This document shows, piece by piece, positions 37,153 through 51,793 of a stretch of DNA of 64,000 nucleotides. The notes beneath the pieces were generated by a model that saw only the letters and a program-made list of their open reading frames with translations, was not told the DNA's origin and made no database searches. Numbering within the stretch: the first letter of the stretch is position 1; the number at the start of each line of letters is the position of its first letter. The stretch lies in assembly GCA_025839675.1 (NCBI GenBank), contig CP104013.1:2913121-2977120 (forward strand), in the 5' to 3' direction. Source of the stretch: Candidatus Lokiarchaeum ossiferum. GTDB lineage: Archaea; Asgardarchaeota; Lokiarchaeia; Sigyniarchaeales; Promethearchaeaceae. A program made the translations under genes and the position numbers.

Positions 37153-37665
37153 ATGGCAATGCTACACGACGAAGAACACATTTGTAAACACTGTAATAAA
37201 AAAACCCCCCACATTCACCACTGCACTCCGGTTGAAGAAGCAAAACGATATACTTGCGGTTTTTGCGGGACTGAAAACATAAATCACCGCCACATGTGCA
37301 AGGAAAAATTAAATAACATCAAATTTTATTGTGCTAATTGTGGAGCGGTGGGAGTAGAAGAAACGGACATCTGTAATCCTGTGCCAATTGATGCAGAACA
37401 ACGAGAACAATGGGATAAAGTGGCATCAAAAACAGATACAGAAGTATTGGATTCTTGCCGAATTTGTGGTCAACCAGTTTCACCACCCGGTCATTTCTGT
37501 GATCCGAAATATCCGTATGTTTGCGAATATTGTGGTGTAAAAGTCGAGACGGGACACCATTTTTGTAAAGAAAAAGTAGGTAATTGTAAATATGACTGCA
37601 AAACTTGTGGTCGGATCGCTATTAAAGCGACAGATGTATGTGCTCCCTTTAAATTTAGAGATTAA
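37153..37665 (+). CDS. Cys-rich tandem-repeat protein (six C-x2-C-G-x7-[H/D]-x-C-x-[P/E] modules)
   Basis: 170 aa containing CKHCNKKTPHIHHCTP, CGFCGTENINHRHMCKE, CANCGAVGVEETDICNP, CRICGQPVSPPGHFCDP, CEYCGVKVETGHHFCKE and CKTCGRIAIKATDVCAP. Confidence 0.6.
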   Translation: MAMLHDEEHICKHCNKKTPHIHHCTPVEEAKRYTCGFCGTENINHRHMCKEKLNNIKFYCANCGAVGVEETDICNPVPIDAEQREQWDKVASKTDTEVLDSCRICGQPVSPPGHFCDPKYPYVCEYCGVKVETGHHFCKEKVGNCKYDCKTCGRIAIKATDVCAPFKFRD

Positions 37666-39575: not shown

Positions 39576-40991
39576 GTGATTCTAATCATATCATTTTTTC
39601 GATTTCTGGTAGAAAATATTCGAAAGAAAAAGTTGAATATACAAAGTGAAATGAATCTATTAATGGAAAATTTTTGGGACTTTGCGAAGTATATAGAATT
39701 AAAATATAGATATGATACAACTCCAATGTATCGATCATTACTATCTATCGCAAATGGATTGAATTCACCATTTTTTGAGGGGAAAAAATTAAATCCTCAA
39801 CAATTAATAACTAATTCCTTTGATTCCCCCACTACTCAAAAAGGGATCTCAGCTTTTTTTGATTCACCCCAAAAAAAAGAATTTCGAGAGTGCTCTCAAG
39901 AATCGCTCATTTCTATTGGTTATTATGAACCATACACAAAATCGGCTCTTGATGAAGGTCAAAAACCCATTTTTGGACATAAAATGATTATTCAATTTCA
40001 TTTAGCAATCAGACATATAAAGTTGGGTTATAATATAATTAATCTAGAAGATGAATCCTTGATCGAGAAGATGCCAAAATTACTATTATTCGTTTCTTCT
40101 ACTATCTTAAGTAAAGCTGTGCAACTCAACTTGATTGAATATGTTAGGAAGGGAGGTCATTTATGCATTTTTGGAGATTTTCCAGTATGTGATGAACAAC
40201 ACCAAACCTATTCCTTAATAAAAGACGAGTACTCTAAAACCCAAAATAGTGGAAAAATCAAATATTTTAAAGGAAATCCCCTTACTTGTCGTAGAGGTAT
40301 TCGATATTATCTCGAAGAATTTTCTTTGAAATATAAAAATCAAATATCTCGGCTCAGAATACCAAAAATTTTCTCACCTATTAAGGAAAATCTTTCTTTT
40401 TCTAAAATTTCTGCAAATATCCTAAGAAAATTTAATCCAACAGAACTTCAAGGCGATAGTCTCAAATCGATCCACCTTCTCTTACGATTTCTTCAAAAAC
40501 AAGGGATCACACGTAAAATTGATGTGTCAGTAAGAACAGAGTATATTTTCCGCCACAAAATTGAAGTCTTTGTTTATACCCATCCTGATAAGGATCTTCT
40601 CTACCTTTTTATTTTTAGCAGAGATACTAGCTGGACTCTACCCGTTTCGATTCACCTTTATATCCCAGAGCGTTCTTTTAGCTTGCGTGTCCGCACAAAT
40701 ATACTTGGACATACTTCACAAGTTCTCCGTATTGAAAATGGTGAATTGAATAATTTCATCTATACTGGGATAAATCCTATTTTGCATACCAAAGCTCGGT
40801 TATATTTAAAAGTCAATAAAGATACGATTAAAACTTCTGATCCAGTTGATATCATTTATATTCGGAAAGAAAATAGTGCAGAGATTTATGCGGGCCATGG
40901 TAATTTTAAATATAACAAAAAAATATTCTTGAAAGGATTACAAGACCAACCCATTGTGGTTAAAAAAGGGGCTCACAAAATTTCTTTTTAG
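39576..40991 (+). CDS. hypothetical protein with GH42 trimerisation / class-I glutamine-amidotransferase-like domain
   Basis: 'KLLLFVSSTILSKAVQLNLIEYVRKGGHLCIFGDFPVCDEQ' resembles the beta-galactosidase (GH42) trimerisation domain core (lyll..e.a..l..yV.nGGtlv.t..sg.vDe), but no catalytic TIM barrel precedes it. The start is likely internal (MNLLMENFWDF). Confidence 0.4.
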   Translation: MILIISFFRFLVENIRKKKLNIQSEMNLLMENFWDFAKYIELKYRYDTTPMYRSLLSIANGLNSPFFEGKKLNPQQLITNSFDSPTTQKGISAFFDSPQKKEFRECSQESLISIGYYEPYTKSALDEGQKPIFGHKMIIQFHLAIRHIKLGYNIINLEDESLIEKMPKLLLFVSSTILSKAVQLNLIEYVRKGGHLCIFGDFPVCDEQHQTYSLIKDEYSKTQNSGKIKYFKGNPLTCRRGIRYYLEEFSLKYKNQISRLRIPKIFSPIKENLSFSKISANILRKFNPTELQGDSLKSIHLLLRFLQKQGITRKIDVSVRTEYIFRHKIEVFVYTHPDKDLLYLFIFSRDTSWTLPVSIHLYIPERSFSLRVRTNILGHTSQVLRIENGELNNFIYTGINPILHTKARLYLKVNKDTIKTSDPVDIIYIRKENSAEIYAGHGNFKYNKKIFLKGLQDQPIVVKKGAHKISF

Positions 40992-41145: not shown

Positions 41146-42099
41146 ATGATAATGGTTACAATAGCAGATGGAAGATATTCTCTTCCCAGTTCTTACCTTT
41201 ATTCCAAAACCCAGCATGTTTTCTTGGATAAAGTGAAAAAAATTTGTGGTTTAGATCAAATCGGCTATGCTTTTCTTAAAAAGCCAACAGAAATGCAAAT
41301 ACTAGTTGATAAGGAAGTAAAGGTGGGAGAACCCTTTGTTGCAATAACAACGGATAGAGGGATTTCAACCTTAAATTCACCCTGTTCGGGCATATTGAAG
41401 ACAAAGCATGATGATGCTTTGGAAAAAATGGAAAATGATACCTATGAATATGGTATTCTTGAGTTTGAAGAAATAACTGAAATTGATACTGCATTAATTA
41501 CTGGAGCAGACATTGAACCTTGGGCTAATCATGAGGTGCGGTCATTATTAAAAAATGAATATAGCTTCAAGGTAATTTTAACCGGAGATTCAGCAGTTGG
41601 AAAGACGGCCATTAAAGTCCGCTTTACAGATGACTATTTTAAACAAGACTTAAAGACAACTTTGGGAGTCGATTTTGGTTCAAAAGAATTGAAGTGCGAA
41701 TATTTAACAGAAGATATTCTATTTTCTGGGGTGTATAGATTTACTTCAAAAATGAACGTGTGGGATGCTGCAGGGCAAAGTCATTATGACAAAATTCGAG
41801 GCATGTACTACCGAGATGCTAAAGGAGCACTTCTGGTGTATGATGTGAACAATCCTGTATCATTTGATAATTTAGATAAATGGATTGAAGAATTAGATGA
41901 AAATTTGGGGCATGTGCCTACTTTACTCATTGGGAATAAAACAGATTTGGAGAGATTGGTACCACTTGAAAAAGCCTTGGAATTTGCGAAAAACCATGGT
42001 TTTCTTTATGCAGAATGTTCAGCAAAAACGGGTGATAAAGTTGAGAATGTTTTTCGGAAGTTAGCCATAGAAATCTACAAAAAAGAAGAAAATTTGTAA
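41146..42099 (+). CDS. Rab/Ras-like small GTPase with roughly 140-aa N-terminal extension domain
   Basis: 317 aa. G1 'GDSAVGKTA', G3 'WDAAGQ', G4 'GNKTDL', G5 'CSAKTG'. The N-terminal roughly 140 aa have no GTPase motifs. Confidence 0.8.
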   Translation: MIMVTIADGRYSLPSSYLYSKTQHVFLDKVKKICGLDQIGYAFLKKPTEMQILVDKEVKVGEPFVAITTDRGISTLNSPCSGILKTKHDDALEKMENDTYEYGILEFEEITEIDTALITGADIEPWANHEVRSLLKNEYSFKVILTGDSAVGKTAIKVRFTDDYFKQDLKTTLGVDFGSKELKCEYLTEDILFSGVYRFTSKMNVWDAAGQSHYDKIRGMYYRDAKGALLVYDVNNPVSFDNLDKWIEELDENLGHVPTLLIGNKTDLERLVPLEKALEFAKNHGFLYAECSAKTGDKVENVFRKLAIEIYKKEENL

Positions 42100-42135
42100 A
42101 TTTGAGGCTTCGTTTTTTTTTCTATGCTTTATTTT

Positions 42136-42615
42136 CTATATCGCTTTAATGTGTACCAAGTATTTATATAAAAGAGTGTTTAAATCAGGCTCAATTGATT
42201 CGTAAATAGACTTATTTGATCGATTGTGGAGAATTTGATCATGAAATTTAGTATAGAAGAGATCTAATCCCGTTTCATAGAAAGTTGAAATGTGATCTTT
42301 TATAATATTTGGTCGAAACATCATTGTCAGAATTAATCCATGTTTCGCAACAATATTCATCTCAATGTTCAAACCTTCGATTAGGATACGTTGGATTTTT
42401 CCAACATTTTCTTCCCCAAATACATTTAACGCAGCTATGAAATTACTCATCAAAGGAATTTTTATATCAAAATCATCTGTAAAGGATTTTGAATATAAAA
42501 TGTCACCGCCTTCACGTGCAATAAATATTCCAATTATGTATTTTTTCAATATTTTATGAAATTTAGAATTTTCAGATAGATTTGTCATTGAAGATGAACA
42601 TGTCGATTTATCCAT
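42136..42615 (-). CDS. roadblock/LC7-like (MglB-like) small protein, paralog A
   Basis: 159 aa, about 70% identical to 44552..45070 ('GGDILYSKSF...PLMSNFIAALNVFGEENVGKI.RILIEGL.IEMNIVAKHGL.LTMMFRP'). The alternating hydrophobic pattern resembles the roadblock fold. It is convergent with and 37 nt from the Rab-like GTPase gene. Confidence 0.45.
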   Translation of the reverse strand: MDKSTCSSSMTNLSENSKFHKILKKYIIGIFIAREGGDILYSKSFTDDFDIKIPLMSNFIAALNVFGEENVGKIQRILIEGLNIEMNIVAKHGLILTMMFRPNIIKDHISTFYETGLDLFYTKFHDQILHNRSNKSIYESIEPDLNTLLYKYLVHIKAI

Positions 42616-42760
42616 TCAAAACACTTTTACTATTAGGTATGATAAGCAATATTATAAAAATATCCATTTTTGAAAAGTAACTCACAAATATAGGACGAAA
42701 TCACATAATATGATATTGTTAATATTCTTTATAATACCGATAAGAAAAAACCCAAAAAAA

Positions 42761-44389
42761 TCACGAAAGATAACTTCGTTTCCAATCATCAATTCGGACC
42801 AAATTTGTCTTAATAGTCCGCGGACTTAACCATCGCAAGATATTGAGCTTAGAGCCTGCTTTATCATTGGTACCTGATGCACGAGCTCCCCCAAAGGGTT
42901 GTCTGCCGACAATAGCACCAGTAGGTTTATCATTAATGTAAAAATTACCTGCGGCATATCTTAACACTTTCTTACTTAGAGCAATTGCTTCAATATCCGT
43001 TGCAAAAATAGCTCCAGTTAGAGCATATGGAGAAGTTGCATCGCATATATGAAGGATCTGCTCAAATTCGTTTTCAGGATATACATAAACCGTAACAATT
43101 GGACCAAATATTTCTTCTTCCATCAATCGAGCTCGCGAATCTTTGGCTAGAATAACAGTTGGGTCAATGAACCAGCCTTTTGTCTCATCAATCTCTCCTC
43201 CTGTAATTATTTCATAAGATTCAGGATGATTTTTCGCATAGTTTAAATACTCAACAATTTTTCTAAAGGATTTTTCATCAATGATAGAACCACCGGCTAC
43301 TTCCAAGGAGGAAACGTCCCCATATTTGAAATTTGGGAGGGTTTCCAAAATTATTTGCTTGTAAGAAGACCATTGATTCTCTGGAATATAGACTCGGGAG
43401 GCTGCAGAACATTTCTGTCCCTGATACTCAAAACTCCCACGTATTATATTCATAGCAGTATGTTGTAGTGGGGCAGATTGATGAACCATAATAAAATCTT
43501 TCCCACCAGTTTCTCCGACAATACGTGGAAAATTTCTGTAACTCCGCAAATTTAACCCGACTTGTTGCCAAATTTTGATCAAAGTATCATAACTTCCAGT
43601 GAAATGGATTCCTGCGAGATTGGGATTATTTATGACAATTCCAGCATCTTGGCTATCAAACGGAACAAAATTAATAACACCTGGAGGCAATCCAGATTCC
43701 AATAAGACTTCCATGATCTTATAATTGGCAAAAATCACACTTCGAGCAGGTTTCCACAATACCACATTTCCTGCTACAGCAGGTGCTGCCGCAAGATTGC
43801 CACCTATTGAATAAAAATTGAAGGGTGGAATAGCCAGAATAAATCCTTCAAGAGGACGCCATTCAAATTCATTTTCTTCCCCAACATAACTTTTAGGTTG
43901 AATTGCAAACAATTCTTCAAGATATTTGGAGTTATAATTAAGAAAATCAATCATTTCAGCTAAATCAATTTCTGCTTCATAGGGAGTTTTGGATTGGTTT
44001 AACATTATAGCAGCAATATTTTCAATTCGTTTTGGTCCAGCAAGGAGTTCAGCCGCTTTACGAAATATATTCACACGATCACATGCATCTAATTCTGACC
44101 ATTGTTCGTGGGCATCTAATGCTGACGAAATTGCATCTTTCAAGTGTTCTTTAGTTGCTAAATGAGCCTTAGCAAGGATTTGAGAGTGATCATGAGGAGA
44201 AACAATATCAATCACTTTTGAAGACCGTATTTTTTTCCCATTGATAATTAGCGGAATTTCTTCAACATGGTTTTTCATACGTTCGAGTTCTTTAAGGAGC
44301 ATTGAGCGCTCTTTGGAATTTTTTTTATAAGTTGGGATTTGATCAACATCATTTTCTACTATTTGGGGTACACATTCCATACAAAACAC
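42761..44389 (-). CDS. aldehyde dehydrogenase, likely 1-pyrroline-5-carboxylate / glutamate-semialdehyde dehydrogenase type
   Basis: 542 aa. ALDH catalytic Glu motif 'VGETGGKDF' and Cys motif 'GQKCSAASR'. The N-terminal extension and length are typical of RocA/P5CDH-like enzymes. Confidence 0.8.
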   Translation of the reverse strand: MFCMECVPQIVENDVDQIPTYKKNSKERSMLLKELERMKNHVEEIPLIINGKKIRSSKVIDIVSPHDHSQILAKAHLATKEHLKDAISSALDAHEQWSELDACDRVNIFRKAAELLAGPKRIENIAAIMLNQSKTPYEAEIDLAEMIDFLNYNSKYLEELFAIQPKSYVGEENEFEWRPLEGFILAIPPFNFYSIGGNLAAAPAVAGNVVLWKPARSVIFANYKIMEVLLESGLPPGVINFVPFDSQDAGIVINNPNLAGIHFTGSYDTLIKIWQQVGLNLRSYRNFPRIVGETGGKDFIMVHQSAPLQHTAMNIIRGSFEYQGQKCSAASRVYIPENQWSSYKQIILETLPNFKYGDVSSLEVAGGSIIDEKSFRKIVEYLNYAKNHPESYEIITGGEIDETKGWFIDPTVILAKDSRARLMEEEIFGPIVTVYVYPENEFEQILHICDATSPYALTGAIFATDIEAIALSKKVLRYAAGNFYINDKPTGAIVGRQPFGGARASGTNDKAGSKLNILRWLSPRTIKTNLVRIDDWKRSYLS

Positions 44390-44551
44390 CTCTAATTTTG
44401 GAATTTTTCTATATCAAGGACTTAATGTAAAACGAGTAATCTGACTAGTAAAAACTATCAAATCAATATTAAACAAACCCATTGCAATAATAAGAAGAAT
44501 AGGGGATTTGTAAACAAAAAGAAAGAATTATGGAATAAAAAGTAATATCAA

Positions 44552-45070
44552 TTAAAGAGCTTCAATATGCACAAGATATTCAAATAATAACTCGAACATT
44601 TTTGGGTCAAATTGCTCATAAATTGTCTGATTAGTCCGGTTTTGGGCGATTTGTTCTTTAAACTCATCATAAAACATATCCAATCCAATTTCATAATATT
44701 TTGAGATATGATCTTTGACCATATGAGGACGAAACATCATTGTTAGAACCAAGCCATGCTTCGCAACAATATTCATTTCAATATCTAAACCTTCTATTAA
44801 AATACGCTTGATTTTACCGACATTTTCTTCCCCAAATACATTTAGAGCGGCGATAAAATTACTCATTAAAGGAAGTTTTAATCCATCTTGAAATGATTTG
44901 GAATACAAAATATCCCCTCCATCTCGAGCTACAAATATTCCCACAAGATACTTTTCCAAAATTTTTTGAAATTTCACATTTATTGGAACGTAGGGATGAT
45001 GCGAGGACAGAAAAGAAGTTTTTGTATTTTCCATAAAAATCACCTTGGCGATATGATTCGTTTTGATCAA
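44552..45070 (-). CDS. roadblock/LC7-like (MglB-like) small protein, paralog B
   Basis: 172 aa. Near-identical core to 42136..42615 (see that entry). Confidence 0.45.
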   Translation of the reverse strand: MIKTNHIAKVIFMENTKTSFLSSHHPYVPINVKFQKILEKYLVGIFVARDGGDILYSKSFQDGLKLPLMSNFIAALNVFGEENVGKIKRILIEGLDIEMNIVAKHGLVLTMMFRPHMVKDHISKYYEIGLDMFYDEFKEQIAQNRTNQTIYEQFDPKMFELLFEYLVHIEAL

Positions 45071-45167
45071 ATAACCGTTTGATCAAATAATTGTTTGATC
45101 AATATATAAAGTAAACGCAATGTTTACATGGGGATAACTCGGAAATAGAATCCAAAAAAAATGACTT

Positions 45168-46289
45168 TTATTTGCCAATCAAACCAGATTTTTTCGCAAT
45201 TTTCAAGAAAGCAAGTTGTAAAATGAAGGTTTCAAATATTGGGGATAATTCTATGATAGGAGAATTGAAGTTAATCATTAGGACATCGTAATCAGATTTA
45301 TAAAATGCAGATAAACTCGGATTATTACAAAGAATTACAACTTTTCCCGCTCGAATTTTAATTTGATCAATTAAACGAATGAGTGTGTTGTTAGATTCTT
45401 CTCCTTCTCTATCTCCAACTAGCATCATACAATTGATAGATTTATCTTCAATTCTGCGTTCAAAAACTTGAAATGGTCCATGGAAAAAATGCCCCAAAGC
45501 AATTCCTTCAGCGAACTTGCGATGATATGTTTTAGCAATCAGAGCTGCAAACTTCGCACAAGCCAAGGATGATGGATCTTTTGAGATGAAATATAAATAT
45601 TGAAGCTCATAGCCCAAAAAATCAGAAATTTGATCAACACTTTTCTCCCAAGATTCACGAAAATCTTTGAGTTCAGAGATCAATTCAAAAGATCCTTTCT
45701 GGATCGTATCTAAATTAAAATCGGTTCCCACTAACATTTGAGAAACTAAATAAAGCACAAATAAGGTATTTCCAAATGATTTCAAGCCAATAACTAATTC
45801 TGAATCAACATAAGTATGGAAAACTTGACCGCATTTTTTTGCAACGGGAGAATTTTGCTCATTAGTTATGAGCCAAAGCAAATTTCTATCAATTTTGAGT
45901 AAAGAAAGGTGATCTAGTGCTTTTAATATTAAGCGCGATGACCCAGATCGGGATATAAAAATATAAAGTGTATCTTGGGAATCTTCAGGCAAGAAATAAT
46001 CGTAAAATTCGGTTAATTCGATACATTCCCATGTAAAATCTAAAGCATAGGGTGAATTCATGAATACAAATCGAGGTATGAAACTGGCGAAGTGATTAAA
46101 CGTATTTCCAATAAAAACGACTTTTGAAAATTTAATTTGGGAAACGATTTGAATGATACTTTGGACCATTTTCTTACCTTCTCCAGTAGTATAAGAATTC
46201 ACACAATCTTGTAATACTTCAGGAGCATTGAGAAAATTCTTAAGTAGGTCATTATAAGAAAAAGGCCAAATTTGCGTTTCTGGGGTCAC
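45168..46289 (-). CDS. SIS-domain sugar-phosphate isomerase/deaminase-like protein (double SIS)
   Basis: 373 aa. The 'FISRSGSS' S-x-S-G-x-S/T SIS phosphate-binding motif and a second SIS-like half. Overlaps the upstream paralog by 4 nt. Confidence 0.6.
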   Translation of the reverse strand: MTPETQIWPFSYNDLLKNFLNAPEVLQDCVNSYTTGEGKKMVQSIIQIVSQIKFSKVVFIGNTFNHFASFIPRFVFMNSPYALDFTWECIELTEFYDYFLPEDSQDTLYIFISRSGSSRLILKALDHLSLLKIDRNLLWLITNEQNSPVAKKCGQVFHTYVDSELVIGLKSFGNTLFVLYLVSQMLVGTDFNLDTIQKGSFELISELKDFRESWEKSVDQISDFLGYELQYLYFISKDPSSLACAKFAALIAKTYHRKFAEGIALGHFFHGPFQVFERRIEDKSINCMMLVGDREGEESNNTLIRLIDQIKIRAGKVVILCNNPSLSAFYKSDYDVLMINFNSPIIELSPIFETFILQLAFLKIAKKSGLIGK

Positions 46290-47368
46290 TTTTCAATTAC
46301 CTCCCGGCGTAGAGCTTGATCTAAAAGCAAATATTGTAATACAATCGTCTCAAAAATAGGAGCTAAAGAAGGATTTTTTGTAGTGTGTTCAAAAACCCAA
46401 ACATTTTCATTTGATCTCCCCAACGATGATAACTCTCGGCTGTTATTAATAAGCATCACTTTTCCTGAGCCTAATTTTTTACTAACCATCTCAATCAAGC
46501 GAAGGGTATCTTCAAGATTAGATTCATCCCCAATAATTAGCACACATCGAAAATCTTCTGGATTAGATTGCACTATTTGATAGGGGCCATGGAGAAAAAG
46601 ACCAATATTTGTTCCTTCTCCATAAATACGGGCATAAGATTTGACACTAAAAGCCCCCCTATACGCAGTTGATAGAGAAGCACCTTTGGAAATGAAATAA
46701 AGAAAATTATAATCTGTTCCTAAAAACTCTGTCAGTGATTTAACATGAAATTCCCAATCTTGGCCGTAAAATTTTATTTCAAAAATTAATTGGCGAATTT
46801 CTTCTTCAATTTTAGACGAGATGACATCGCGATTCATAAATGCTCTGCCTATAAAGTAGAGAACCAGCATTGCATTGACATAAGATTTTGTTCCGATAAC
46901 TTCTTCATCCCCCACAACAGTAGGTAAAATAAAATGAGAGTTTTGAGCCACGAAAGATTCCAGATTATTTGATACACCCCAAATTTTCTGAGGATCCAGA
47001 TTTTTATCTTGTAAATGTTGAATTGCAAGTTTTATTTGAGGAGAATTCCCTGAATGCGAAACAAAGCAAAAAACACATTTTTGCTTCAGCCTACGGGGAG
47101 TAAAATATTTGAGAAATTCATCCCCCTCATAAATTTCACAAGTTTTCTTTCTACGATTGATATAGTAAAAAGGGATATATGAAGCGAAGAAATTATAACT
47201 ATGCCCCACAAAAATGATTTGTTCAATATTTTTGGATTGAACATATTGTTTTATTTGATTAATCTTTTGTTTTCCCTCAAACGACAAATAATAACGCAAA
47301 CACTTGAGCATCGCCTTGGGAATGGATTGAAAATCATCCAAGATAGTATCAAATTTCAACTTGGTCAT
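46286..47368 (-). CDS. SIS-domain sugar-phosphate isomerase/deaminase-like protein (double SIS), paralog
   Basis: 360 aa. 'FVSHSGNS' SIS motif; overall collinear with 45168..46289. Confidence 0.6.
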   Translation of the reverse strand: MTKLKFDTILDDFQSIPKAMLKCLRYYLSFEGKQKINQIKQYVQSKNIEQIIFVGHSYNFFASYIPFYYINRRKKTCEIYEGDEFLKYFTPRRLKQKCVFCFVSHSGNSPQIKLAIQHLQDKNLDPQKIWGVSNNLESFVAQNSHFILPTVVGDEEVIGTKSYVNAMLVLYFIGRAFMNRDVISSKIEEEIRQLIFEIKFYGQDWEFHVKSLTEFLGTDYNFLYFISKGASLSTAYRGAFSVKSYARIYGEGTNIGLFLHGPYQIVQSNPEDFRCVLIIGDESNLEDTLRLIEMVSKKLGSGKVMLINNSRELSSLGRSNENVWVFEHTTKNPSLAPIFETIVLQYLLLDQALRREVIEK

Positions 47369-47817
47369 TTCTATATGATTGTTATTTATTTGTTTAACTC
47401 AAAAACCTTAGCTCAAAACATTGTTTGTGATTTTACTCAAAAAAAGAAATTTTAAAAATGAAGGATTAACACCTTAGTAAAAGTTGTCTACTCGATAATA
47501 ATTATTAACCGGATGCATATAGAAATTAGTCGGATAACATATCTTAACAATGGAATTTAAATAGGAAGGAGTCAATTTCAGAATTAAGGCGAAATTTTAA
47601 TTATAAACTTTTCCTTCCTATAAGAACTTTATTGAGTAAATTTTATAAAGATCATGGTCAATTAAGCACCATATTTAAAGTATTAACCGCTTACTTTTAC
47701 GAGAATAACTTATCCGTTAACAAGCCAATTTATATACGATCTCGACAAAAATAGATTTGTGTGTGAATCATTCAATTCAAGATGATGAATGAATTTTTTT
47801 GTGAGGGATAAACTAAA
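47369..47817. promoter_or_regulatory. candidate replication origin (oriC) upstream of orc1/cdc6, with ORB-like inverted repeats flanking an AT-rich stretch
   Basis: 449-bp AT-rich non-coding region. TTAWCCG-type elements occur at about 47503-47515 (attattaaccggatg) and 47528-47540 (agtcggataacat, inverted), and again at 47680-47694 (tattaaccgcttac) and 47707-47721 (cttatccgttaac). They bracket a roughly 60-bp A/T-rich stretch (47590-47650). The region sits next to orc1/cdc6 and the PolD genes. Confidence 0.35.
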
Positions 47818-49107
47818 ATGTTCGATATTGATGATTATTTTACCGATTTTATGAAGAATGAAAAAATTTTTGAAGATCGCGATGTATTACGCCCGGAATT
47901 TATACCATCTATTTTACCACATCGAGATTTGCAAGTGAAGCGAATTGCCGAAATCGTGGCGTGTACCCTTAAAAATTCTATGCCTTCAAATATTTTCATT
48001 TTTGGTAAAACCGGAACAGGAAAAACAGCCGTTGTAGGTCATGTTAGCGAACGGTTAAATTATCAATGTCGAAAAGCGGGAATTACAGAATCTCAATGGA
48101 TATTTTTAAATTGCCAGGAGGTCAATACAGGATATCGGATCTTAGCTAAAATTTGTGCGGAGATAGACCCTAACGATCCCGTTCCAATTGCAGGATGGCC
48201 CATTGACGTCATTTTCGATAAGCTCGTAGAAAAACTGGATAAATTTGTCGAAGGAATATGTTTTCTTGTTTTAGACGAAATAGATATTTTAGTTAAAAAT
48301 ACTAAAAAATCGCATGATGTCCTATATAACTTGGCCCGTATCAACTCTCGCTTGAAAAAAGGGCGAGTGAACCTAATTGGCATTTCTAATGTATTAAATT
48401 TCAAAAGTGCCTTGGATCCACGGGTTCTTAGCAGTCTTGGAGAAGAAGAAATTGTGTTTCCAGCATATAATGCCATGGAACTATCAGATATTTTACGCCA
48501 ACGTGCCCAAAAAGCTTTTAATGAAAATGCACTCGACGATAGTGTGATACCTCTCTGTGCTGCCTTGGCGGCAAAAGAGCATGGAGATGCGCGAAAAGCA
48601 TTAGATTTACTTCGTAAAGCCGGAGAATTAGCTGAACGCCGCAATACACTCACAGTAACCTCTGATCATGTTTATTTTGCCCAAGCAGATATCGAAAAAG
48701 ATAAAATGCAAGAATACTGTGAAGCTTTGCCACTCCAAAGTAAAACTATTTTATTAAGCATCTACCATATGCAGAAGTACAGAGGGGAACAAGCCATAAT
48801 TACTGGAGATATCTATAATGCATATTCTGAAATTTCCACTATGGTTCCCGGTCTAAATAAACTTACCCAACGGCGTGTATCAGAATTAATCCGAGAATTA
48901 GATTTATCCGGGATGGTAAATGCCCGCGTAAAATCAAATGGACGTTATGGTCGGACCAAATTTATCAAGCTAAATATCCCCCTTAATGATACATCAAAAT
49001 ACTTAAAAAATGAACGCCGCTTAAACGAGCTAATCAATTATCGCCCCATTTGTGTAGGACAAAAAACGATCCAGCACAATGGAACAAAATTTCGCAAGTT
49101 AGCATAA
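47818..49107 (+). CDS. orc1: Orc1/Cdc6 replication initiator
   Basis: 429 aa. Walker A 'GKTGTGKTAVV', Walker B 'LVLDEIDIL', sensor regions and a C-terminal winged-helix domain. Confidence 0.9.
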   Translation: MFDIDDYFTDFMKNEKIFEDRDVLRPEFIPSILPHRDLQVKRIAEIVACTLKNSMPSNIFIFGKTGTGKTAVVGHVSERLNYQCRKAGITESQWIFLNCQEVNTGYRILAKICAEIDPNDPVPIAGWPIDVIFDKLVEKLDKFVEGICFLVLDEIDILVKNTKKSHDVLYNLARINSRLKKGRVNLIGISNVLNFKSALDPRVLSSLGEEEIVFPAYNAMELSDILRQRAQKAFNENALDDSVIPLCAALAAKEHGDARKALDLLRKAGELAERRNTLTVTSDHVYFAQADIEKDKMQEYCEALPLQSKTILLSIYHMQKYRGEQAIITGDIYNAYSEISTMVPGLNKLTQRRVSELIRELDLSGMVNARVKSNGRYGRTKFIKLNIPLNDTSKYLKNERRLNELINYRPICVGQKTIQHNGTKFRKLA

Positions 49108-49849: not shown

Positions 49850-51793
49850 TTACATATCAGCAGCTAAATCAATAACTTGGGGAGTAAATTTGCCATTAAC
49901 ATTAATAATGGTCGGTTTCCCAAAATCAGGTTCAATTCCCAGACTTTTCTGGAAATCAGTTTGACCTTGGAAACAACCTGAGTTGATTGTTGTGATGCCA
50001 TGGTAAGTTCCCACGCCATTTTTATGGAGATGCCCGGTATGCAAAATATCTGGCAGGGTACTCATGATCATCCAATCTTCAAGTAAGGGGGCAATTTCAG
50101 TTTTTTTCCCATATGTAGGAGTTAAATCACGCGCTCGAATAAATTCATTCATTGTTTTACAAGGATCTTCGTGAGACATCCCTGGAATGGACATGTTCAT
50201 ATCAATCAACGAAGTTCCATGAAACATCTGGACCTTGATTCCGTGAAGACTAACCATAGTTGGGCAACCTACCATTGATATACCCATTTCATACATTGCG
50301 GGAGCCATTTCTTTCGAGATTGCAGGATTGGGCACAGCCTTCCGAACAGCATCATGATCACCAGGGGAAGCAATTATTTGAATATAATCGGGAATTTGAG
50401 AGAGATATTCAGCGGTGGCCTCGTATTGTTTATAAATATCTTTAATAAATAAATGTTTATCTTGATTTGGATAAATTCCAATTCCATCAACAATATCTCC
50501 AGCAATACAGAGATATTTGATTTTACCCGCTTGCTTTACTTGTTTATCCGATCCCATATTACAATTTAAATAATCAACGAATCGATTCCATTCTTTTTCC
50601 AGCCAATATTTACTTCCAAAGTGAAGATCGGATACAAAACAGATCGATAGGTCTTCTTGCGGATAATTTATGGGATGGGTATTGGGAGAATCAGGAAAGA
50701 TAATCTTATTGATCATGATAATGCGAGAATTCGTTTTTTTATTCACACTTAAATATCCATCCACAATCACTACATGGTCGGGTAATAGATAATTCATCAA
50801 ATCATAAAGTTCTTTAGGTTCTTGTCGCACTAAAGTCATACACGTTCCTGTTAGATCTTCAAATTCTATTAAATAATTCCGTTTTGAAGTTTGGCGTTTT
50901 TCAACTACCATCCCCACAAATTTCACTTCAACTGAATTTTCCAAGCGATTAATCATGTTGATATCCAAGAGACTATGACCTTCAGGACGTTTCTTTAAAA
51001 TTTTAGTCAATTTATGAAACTTATCCGCTTGGAGTCCGACGAATTCATCGAGTTTTCCATCGGTGAACATTTTTCCAGTAGGATCTGAAATGATTTCCAC
51101 TTCTGCATTATATTCTGAAGCTAATGGGCGAAAAGTTGAAGTTGATTGACGGATTTGAACACGTTGATAACTTTTCTTCTTTTCTTCCCGAATTCGCAGA
51201 ATTTCGGTTTCGTCCATCCGCCCTTTACTCGAAGATGGAGTCTCAAGATTCGATTCAGGAGGGAGTTGTTCCGAAACAACTTTATCATCCCCTAGATCTA
51301 TGGTAGGAAGAGGCTTTAATACTTTCTGACCTGGAGGATTTTGAGAAATACTTGGAAACTCGGGAGAATCAGGTGGTTCAGGAATATCATTCAAATCGTC
51401 TATTGGAATCGATTTTTTATTTTTTTTTCCTCGATCTGGAACGAGTACTGATTTTTTTTTAATAAGATTGAGTGAATTCTTGGAATTACTGGTTTGAGAA
51501 TTCAAGTTTGTTTCATTGCTACTATTATGATTAGAACGGCCTGAAATATCTTGTGGATGAATGTTTGGGGTAATTTTTGATCCATATTCTTGCAATAATA
51601 TTTCTAAAGTGACATGCGAATTAAAAATCGGTGAGAATGATATTTTTCGGATTAAATCTTCGAGTTCTTGCGCATTAAATTTCAAATCTTCAATGTAACA
51701 CAACGCTTCAGGGGAAATATTAATACGAGAAGCGAGAAATTTCTGAAGAATACTTTCGAGGGGAAATCCTTGAGGTGTTTGCGCAATGGTCAT
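49850..51793 (-). CDS. polB: DNA polymerase II (PolD) small subunit DP1
   Basis: 647 aa. The C-terminal calcineurin-like phosphoesterase fold carries 'VSDLHFG', 'GDIVDG', 'GDHD' and 'GHLH'. An OB-fold precedes it. A roughly 120-aa S/N/P/K-rich low-complexity linker follows the N-terminal domain. Confidence 0.9.
   Translation of the reverse strand: MTIAQTPQGFPLESILQKFLASRINISPEALCYIEDLKFNAQELEDLIRKISFSPIFNSHVTLEILLQEYGSKITPNIHPQDISGRSNHNSSNETNLNSQTSNSKNSLNLIKKKSVLVPDRGKKNKKSIPIDDLNDIPEPPDSPEFPSISQNPPGQKVLKPLPTIDLGDDKVVSEQLPPESNLETPSSSKGRMDETEILRIREEKKKSYQRVQIRQSTSTFRPLASEYNAEVEIISDPTGKMFTDGKLDEFVGLQADKFHKLTKILKKRPEGHSLLDINMINRLENSVEVKFVGMVVEKRQTSKRNYLIEFEDLTGTCMTLVRQEPKELYDLMNYLLPDHVVIVDGYLSVNKKTNSRIIMINKIIFPDSPNTHPINYPQEDLSICFVSDLHFGSKYWLEKEWNRFVDYLNCNMGSDKQVKQAGKIKYLCIAGDIVDGIGIYPNQDKHLFIKDIYKQYEATAEYLSQIPDYIQIIASPGDHDAVRKAVPNPAISKEMAPAMYEMGISMVGCPTMVSLHGIKVQMFHGTSLIDMNMSIPGMSHEDPCKTMNEFIRARDLTPTYGKKTEIAPLLEDWMIMSTLPDILHTGHLHKNGVGTYHGITTINSGCFQGQTDFQKSLGIEPDFGKPTIINVNGKFTPQVIDLAADM

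Follow-up and report, generated by a model that had tools for sequence, protein, structure and literature searches.

A predicted longin-fold protein family encoded beside a Rab-like GTPase gene in Candidatus Lokiarchaeum ossiferum

Genes and domains at the locus

Asgard archaea carry genes for dozens of GTPases of the Rab-, Arf- and Rag-like kinds alongside dozens of longin and roadblock proteins, and pairing each regulator with its GTPase is a standing problem. Here we describe a locus of Candidatus Lokiarchaeum ossiferum at which the gene for a Rab-like GTPase lies beside two paralogous genes, termed A1 and A2, for small proteins with a predicted longin fold. The locus belongs to a 64,000-nt stretch of contig CP104013.1, hereafter the window, to whose positions all coordinates refer unless another locus is named. 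A sequence-only reading of this stretch had taken the small proteins for roadblock/LC7 regulators of MglB type, recently duplicated around an aldehyde dehydrogenase (ALDH) gene. The four open reading frames (ORFs) from which it started are all present (41146-42099, +; 42136-42615, -; 42761-44389, -; 44552-45070, -), running in the order GTPase, 159-aa gene, ALDH and 172-aa ORF, and the gap between the GTPase gene and its convergent neighbour, given as 37 nt, measures 36 nt. The features are as follows (HMM, hidden Markov model; AF2, AlphaFold2; PDB, Protein Data Bank):

41146..42099, + strand: gene for a GTPase with a GcvH-like and a Rab-like domain; ORF of 317 aa; matches to Pfam Ras and TIGR00231 small_GTP
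41146..41490, + strand: N-terminal GcvH-like, β-rich domain, residues ~1-115; PF01597 matches in homologs
41503-41550, + strand: linker helix of the GTPase, residues 120-135; secondary structure of the AF2 model
41557..42099, + strand: Rab-like G domain, residues 138-317; motifs from alignments and PDB matches
42100..42135, no strand: convergent spacer of 36 nt from the GTPase stop to the stop of the 159-aa gene; from the sequence
42136..42615, - strand: longin-fold paralog A2, 159 aa, NEF87_002491, convergent with the GTPase gene; family HMM E-value 5e-70; clade A
42761..44389, - strand: L-glutamate gamma-semialdehyde (P5C) dehydrogenase gene; TIGR01236 and Pfam Aldedh
44552..45034, - strand: longin-fold paralog A1, 160 aa; the ORF reaches TTG 45070, and the product is 100% identical to NEF87_002493
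45062..45110, - strand: candidate promoter and operator of A1, with TATA-like TTTATATA (45110-45103) and, after it, three TTGATCAA palindromes at a spacing of 16 nt; repeat and palindrome scan

That the GTPase is Rab-like, as had been proposed, is borne out by a Pfam Ras match over residues 142-311 (E 2e-46) and by the solved chains nearest to its G domain, namely a Thorarchaeota Rab (7ezb, E 1.5e-33), Rab10, Ypt31/32, Rab11 and Rab1; with Rabs as its best PDB matches, the G domain is not of MglA type. Translation probably starts at the second ATG (41152; MVTIADGRY...), giving 315 aa, because M3 is invariant in 50 homologs. The G1 (GDSAVGKT), switch I (T172), G3 (WDAAGQ), G4 (NKTD) and G5 (SAK) elements are intact and conserved across 50 homologs, and since the G1-G5 motifs and the catalytic Gln are retained, the GTPase should cycle. 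Relative to the Thorarchaeota Rab, the alignment shows an insert of ~10 residues in the β2-β3 interswitch hairpin. A C-terminal Cys prenylation motif is present neither in the GTPase, which ends in ...IYKKEENL, nor in the aligned homologs.

The N-terminal domain of the GTPase had been overlooked in the sequence-only reading. PF01597 (GCV_H) matches 33 of 50 full-length homologs (41-97% identical) at E<=0.01, the best at 1.1e-9, and gives no match at E<=0.1 to the window protein itself. The GcvH-like domain is presumably not lipoylated, because the position of the lipoyl lysine varies: residue 71, an Arg in the window protein that we aligned by eye with the lipoyl Lys of GcvH, is N, Q, R, K or S across homologs. 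An AF2 model of the full-length GTPase reached a predicted local distance difference test score (pLDDT) of 86 and a predicted template modelling score (pTM) of 0.60, and because of the latter the modelled orientation of the domains relative to each other is uncertain. The GcvH-Rab architecture of ~317 aa occurs in Lokiarchaeia and also in proteins labelled Hel-, Hod- and Sigynarchaeota at 45-53% identity; in the literature searched, we found no description of a GcvH-like domain joined to a Rab-like one.

For A1, the 172-aa ORF (44552-45070) begins with TTG and the annotated 160-aa product with ATG 45034; since GGTGAT stands before this ATG and a TATA-like box lies upstream of it, A1 is likely a protein of 160 aa, the longer version being an ORF extension. 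Lying directly after TTTATATA and overlapping the expected transcription start of A1, the three TTGATCAA palindromes have the look of an operator site bound by a transcription factor dimer; over the 64-kb window as a whole, the motif shows no enrichment. The A2 product is identical to protein P0007, and the spacer between A2 and the GTPase gene (42100..42135) holds a T9 run on the + strand. A scan for sigma-70 promoters and intrinsic terminators returned counts at shuffle level and is uninformative for an archaeon. The ALDH gene encodes a P5C dehydrogenase, scoring 730 bits against TIGR01236 (cutoff 613.6).

Fold and family of the small proteins

A1 and A2 are 67% identical over 156 aa (BLASTP E 2e-78), far beyond chance. 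Their proposed paralogy thus stands, with the identity, put at about 70%, slightly lowered and the length of 172 aa replaced by a likely 160 aa. Direct annotation returned only a chance-level TRAM match from Pfam, no match from NCBIfam and nothing relevant from phmmer and profile searches of the PDB. We thus turn to an AF2 model of the family with 29 family members as input (pLDDT 82, pTM 0.78), whose helices (H) and strands (E) are H18-29, E30-37, E42-47, H54-67, E77-80, E85-92, E95-101, H111-130 and H136-156. This order, β-β-α-β-β-β-α-α with an extra N-terminal helix (H18-29), is that of longins, and the solved structures nearest to the model are longin domains. Named with this fold are the longins of AP mu/sigma subunits, Ykt6, Trs23/Bet5, sedlin, Lst4 and Ccz1; the sequence identity of the window proteins to their structural matches is only 4-16%.

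A roadblock would show the order α-β-β-α-β-β-β, have no more than one C-terminal helix and find its nearest structures among roadblocks; the model has two C-terminal helices. Moreover, PF03259 (Robl_LC7) matches neither window protein at E<=0.1 nor the 29 family members at E<=1. The roadblock/LC7 identity of MglB type assigned before gives way to a longin topology. The broader placement of the two genes as paralogs within the longin/roadblock superfold is upheld by the structure prediction, a check that had been suggested, which yields a longin order inside that superfold and not an unrelated fold.

Profile searches agree with this placement at low scores. Curated longin profiles gave no above-threshold match to the family or to its remote relatives; sub-threshold, Fuz_longin_1 appears in 5 of 29 members (best E 5e-4) and, among 46 remote relatives, in 3 (best E 6.7e-7), and protein P0291 reaches 22 bits against this profile (cutoff 26.1). 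Robl_LC7 matches just one of the 46 remote relatives (E 5.6e-3). Because the remote relatives weakly match longin/roadblock-type profiles (Fuz_longin_1, MAPKK1_Int, Clat_adaptor_s, SRP-alpha_N, Longin and Robl_LC7), we place the family in the longin/roadblock superfamily and, on the same profile evidence, in no curated family. As modelled, A1 and A2 are stand-alone longin-domain proteins of an orphan family. Searching 5.8 billion clustered proteins with the family profile recovered 101 clusters, all hypothetical and without Pfam domains, whose organism-naming sources are only Lokiarchaeum, Promethearchaeum, Harpocratesius or 'Promethearchaeota/Promethearchaeia archaeon', and an exhaustive HMMER scan of 1.84 billion representatives found just 70 proteins at E<=1e-3.

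Conservation within the family is concentrated in a core made of the β1-β2 loop (GGD), helix α1, an invariant FGEEN.G.I.R loop, strand β3 and the β3-β4 turn. Positions conserved at >=90% make up 20 of 35 in the β1-β2 loop and the α1-to-β4 segment, against 6 of 53 in helices α0, α2 and α3. Within the D-G-G-D of the β1-β2 loop, G40 is invariant, G39 and D41 are conserved at >=90%, and Pro does not occur. R77, at the start of β3, is invariant, K92 is near-invariant, and the β4-β5 turn reads K92-H93, with no Arg. In known longin and roadblock dimers, the α1/β3 face serves dimerisation and GTPase binding, as summarised in PMC10933270.

Linkage, duplication and fusion

Matching regulators to GTPases in Asgard archaea is hard for lack of operons, the GTPases of strain MK-D1 generally lying outside operons with roadblock (RB) or longin genes (Tran et al. 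2024, PMC10933270). MK-D1 holds at least one exception to that rule, at locus L010, the longin partner in this strain probably being DSAG12_01132. We examined 14 distinct loci carrying a family longin gene, including the window; a peptide-pattern scan of genome contigs with strict patterns gave just 6 loci. The longin gene adjoins a GcvH-Rab GTPase gene in 12 of the 14 (window, L001, L002, L003, L006-L011, L016 and L018), mostly directly downstream and on the same strand. The linkage of the small genes to the GTPase, claimed earlier from the window, is confirmed by this adjacency and by one natural fusion, and the comparison of related Asgard genomes that had been called for shows the GTPase-longin neighbourhood to be kept across Lokiarchaeia. 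Beyond the window and L002, the loci with a family longin gene are arranged as follows (MAGs, metagenome-assembled genomes):

L003, second L. ossiferum locus, NEF87_002033/002034: GTPase then longin, same strand, gap of 22 nt
L016: GTPase then longin, same strand, gap of 25 nt
L018: GTPase then longin, same strand, gap of 2 nt
L009, L010 (P. syntrophicum MK-D1) and L011: GTPase then longin, same strand
L007 and L008 (Promethearchaeum MAGs): GTPase then two tandem longin genes
L001, orthologous locus of a relative: GTPase then clade-B longin; also a convergent clade-A longin
L006: longin gene, then the 3' end of a convergent GTPase gene
L015 and L017 (281-aa long variant): no nearby GTPase

A neighbour-joining tree divides the family into two clades, of which A includes both window copies and B comprises the copy directly downstream of the GTPase; clade-B copies lie there without exception and on the same strand, with gaps of 2-75 nt in called loci. 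Same-strand gaps of 2-25 nt suggest co-translation units. The adjacency spans at least three genomic contexts with otherwise differing neighbours and two cultured genera. A single longin gene was seen beside the GTPase gene in the fetched parts of L003, L009, L010, L016 and L018, and two paralogs flank or follow it in the window, L002, L001, L007 and L008. Such pairs arose at least three separate times, as A1+A2 (window, L002), as A+B (L001) and as B1+B2 (L007, L008), a recurrence that would be expected if a heterodimer were advantageous.

The history of the window pair differs from that first proposed. A nucleotide alignment, already named as the way to bound the duplication, finds similarity between A1 and A2 only in 42188-42571 against 44604-44981 (74-77% identical, one 6-nt indel), with unshared flanks, and the synonymous divergence (dS) between the two is ~2.2 and saturated. 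In the tree, the duplication falls inside clade A, after the split of the L001 lineage and before the splits from the L002 organism and from the P0002/P0005 lineages; L002, another assembly, has 1:1 orthologs of both A1 and A2. By these measures the duplication is old and lineage-specific, and a recent event is ruled out by the dS value and the absence of common flanking DNA. The ratio of nonsynonymous to synonymous divergence (dN/dS) against the L002 orthologs is 0.029 for A1, 0.215 for A2 and 0.020 for the GTPase, values indicating that both longin copies are under purifying selection, unequally, with A2, next to the GTPase, evolving faster and A1 slower. This inequality lends limited support to the idea of a module that is still diversifying; the recency attached to that idea is lost.

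L001 shares with the window two SIS genes and the orthologous GTPase (73% identity), carries at A2's position a clade-B gene on the GTPase strand and has no dehydrogenase. Because this orthologous locus lacks it, the P5C dehydrogenase, which is present in L002, is on gene order a secondary insertion outside the conserved module. A duplication "around" the ALDH gene is thus not sustained, nor is a role of the dehydrogenase in the module, which we considered and rejected.

Fusion proteins provide independent support, at the level of domain architecture, for the GTPase-longin linkage. P0234 (384 aa; L019, 285-1439) has, in place of the GcvH-like domain, a longin domain of the family (profile E 1.9e-41) fused to a G domain 48% identical to that of the window GTPase, interswitch insert included. 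Arf/Rag-like G domains occur as fusion partners in three remote relatives. P0233 is a longin-longin tandem (each domain E ~1e-28) and, like the recurrent paralog pairs, lends indirect support to the proposed dimerisation of the longins. The gene downstream of P0234 on L019 was considered as a further family member and rejected.

Further genes lie around these loci. In L003 (1-6617) of L. ossiferum and in L016 (1-2845) and L018 (1-2747) of two other assemblies, the clade-B GTPase-longin operon is always divergent from an HdrA/B/C-like cluster (CCG, Fer4 and NAD-binding domains), which in L003 additionally has FlpD. At L014 (4001-7309) the gene for the GcvH-Rab paralog P0079 precedes two AsnC-type regulator genes and a gene for another small GTPase, of 181 aa. 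In the window, two tandem SIS-domain genes (45168-47368; 373 and 360 aa, overlapping by 4 nt) resemble the isomerase half of GlmS, and this pair adjoins the longin/GTPase module in L001 and L002 too; a GLMA-like, glucosaminidase-related gene lies upstream of the GTPase gene (39576-40991), and together these genes may form an amino-sugar cluster. Elsewhere in the window, 37153-37665 encodes a Cys/His-rich protein of 170 aa with repeated zinc-ribbon-like CxxC motifs and weak double-zinc-ribbon Pfam matches, conserved in L002. A Cdc6/Orc1 gene (47818-49107) lies near the gene for the DNA polymerase D small subunit (49850-51793); as a possible replication origin, the 450 bp upstream of cdc6 (47369-47817) were searched for origin-like repeats, and only weak short ones turned up.

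Candidate function and comparison with known systems

Longin pairs form the core of TRAPP, Mon1-Ccz1, FLCN-FNIP and GATOR1, and in eukaryotes the longin platforms of Rab-type GTPases (TRAPP, Mon1-Ccz1, BLOC-3, CPLANE and DENN) are exchange factors. We regard the longins as very probably the cognate partners of the GcvH-Rab GTPase. The best explanation as a whole, to which we give an even chance, is a dimeric longin platform that binds the GTPase and controls its nucleotide state. The longins would assemble as a dimer, in the window as an A1/A2 heterodimer, through a conserved face made of helix α1, the invariant FGEEN.G.I.R loop and strand β3, and this α1/FGEEN/β3 face would bind the GTPase at its switch regions. 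As to direction, guanine nucleotide exchange factor (GEF) activity is favoured over GTPase activation, because eukaryotic longin platforms on Rab-type GTPases are GEFs and because the hallmarks of longin GTPase-activating proteins (GAPs) appear to be absent, with GGD in place of GP and Lys-His at the β4-β5 turn, which we take to be where NPRL2 and FLCN carry their arginine fingers. By this analogy a specific role as a GEF is plausible, if somewhat short of probable; as a speculation, the acidic invariant loop (E69, E70) is a candidate exchange element.

Several observations weigh against this proposal of a nucleotide-controlling platform. Two family loci, L015 and L017, have no GTPase nearby, and three GcvH-Rab genes have no nearby longin gene, in L012 (Helarchaeota), L013 (GCA_019058315.1) and L014 (a third L. 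ossiferum paralog). The window's own longin genes are convergent with the GTPase gene and not co-transcribed with it, A1 apparently having its own promoter. For the fusion P0234 the only source is one 1.9-kb contig, and its G domain shows degenerate motifs, with DxxGP (WDIAGP) for DxxGQ and TKSD for NKxD; because the catalytic Gln and the G4 Asn are lost, it may be a locked or pseudo-GTPase. Binding, dimerisation and the direction of regulation, GEF versus GAP, are argued by analogy, and the invariant R77 and near-invariant K92 leave room for a GAP mechanism of finger type.

The last point leads to the view that the small proteins are instead a GAP for the adjoining GTPase, either as an MglB-like dimer that repositions that GTPase's own catalytic residues or by a basic finger as in FLCN, NPRL2 and SMCR8. 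The superfold is common to MglB and LAMTOR, the model has an N-terminal helix as in roadblocks, UniProt labels NEF87_002493 'Roadblock/LC7 domain-containing', and R77 and K92 are accompanied by a conserved GGD at the position of the longin-GAP GP motif (PMC12290439). Known longin GAPs have that GP motif in their β1-β2 loop (PMC12290439); it is missing here, leaving membership in the FLCN/NPRL2/SMCR8 class unsupported, and with the Rab-type precedents pointing to exchange we consider GAP activity unlikely. The longins might otherwise be non-catalytic effectors or adaptors that bind the GTP-bound GTPase and pass its state on to other proteins. Precedents are the SRX longin domain of SR-alpha, which binds SR-beta-GTP, and the sigma, mu and zeta longins of coats, which sit in Arf-regulated assemblies; the structural similarity of the family to SRX and coat longins is high. 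Yet the neighbourhoods hold no further conserved partner genes, SIS genes standing by clade-A loci and Hdr-like genes by clade-B loci, and the most conserved surface is the α1/β3 platform of GEF and GAP longin dimers, going by literature cited in PMC10933270, so that such a relay role seems improbable.

Finally, the adjacency could be meaningless, the longins having a GTPase-independent role, for example of SNARE type or as an unrelated longin, and hitch-hiking in the conserved synteny of close relatives. The convergent, non-operonic arrangement in the window and the two family loci lacking a GTPase would fit this, as would the general separation of MK-D1 GTPases from RB or longin genes (Tran et al., PMC10933270). 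However, adjacency in 12 of 14 loci across differing contexts in two cultured genera, the fusion to the same GTPase subfamily and the short same-strand gaps suggestive of co-translation all argue against it, and we regard it as very unlikely.

Taking the GEF interpretation to its full extent, the module would be a minimal two-subunit longin GEF for one Rab-like GTPase, a free-standing prokaryotic counterpart of the longin-pair core of Mon1-Ccz1 and TRAPP, with heterodimers repeatedly evolved by duplication and a degenerate GcvH-like domain possibly coupling the switch to a metabolic or protein-docking input; as a package, this is doubtful. The module in any case offers a specific GTPase-regulator pairing of a rare kind, marked by conserved gene order, independent duplications and natural fusions. 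Since L. ossiferum and P. syntrophicum MK-D1, the two cultured Lokiarchaeia, each have it, the pair is open to direct reconstitution; if the longins are a GEF, they and the GTPase would be the first Asgard Rab and regulator matched to each other that can be reconstituted in this way. Whether longin platforms controlled Rab-type switches before eukaryotes, as GEF or as GAP, thereby becomes testable in a close archaeal relative of eukaryotes. To Asgard specialists the finding will not be very surprising; as the sequence-only reading supposed, the system appears uncharacterised, and we found no description of this GTPase-longin module in the literature searched.

Compared with the first longin domains of Mon1-Ccz1 and with Bet5/Trs23 (TRAPPC1/C4) of TRAPP, the window longins are stand-alone proteins of ~160 aa and not parts of tri-longin or multi-subunit assemblies; they have an extra N-terminal helix and no significant sequence homology to these proteins. 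The locus also lacks a TRAPPC3/Bet3-like partner as found in TRAPP, its GTPase carries a GcvH-like domain and no prenylation site, and GEF activity is here only putative. From MglA/MglB and the archaeal and Asgard roadblocks, the longins differ by two C-terminal helices in the model, by longins as best matches and by the absence of a PF03259 match, and the GTPase differs from MglA in being Rab-like with a Ras-type catalytic Gln. With the longin GAP complexes FLCN-FNIP, GATOR1 NPRL2-NPRL3 and C9orf72-SMCR8 the module would share a longin-pair architecture, and it shares a conserved glycine-containing β1-β2 loop beside conserved basic residues; it has, however, GGD instead of GP, no Arg at the β4-β5 turn and no DENN or other C-terminal domain, and those complexes act on Rag/Arf GTPases, whereas the GTPase here is Rab-like (PMC12290439).

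Similar in setting are the Asgard operon of a LAMTOR1-like gene, a Rab-like GTPase and DENN, and the fusions of longin/roadblock domains to Rag/Arf-like GTPases (Liu et al., bioRxiv 10.1101/2020.10.19.343400; Tran et al. 2024, PMC10933270; PMC4917890). Like that operon, the module links a Rab-like GTPase to a roadblock/longin protein in the genome, a connection specific to Asgard archaea, and is interpreted as a candidate GEF module. Unlike it, the window has no DENN or LAMTOR1-like gene, its GTPase bears a GcvH-like domain, and its longin family is without a Pfam model and has named sources that are all Promethearchaeia/Lokiarchaeia. Altogether, the logic of a small GTPase with a longin/roadblock-fold partner is known from these systems; new are the orphan longin family, the GcvH-like/Rab-like architecture and the recurrent pairing of paralogs.

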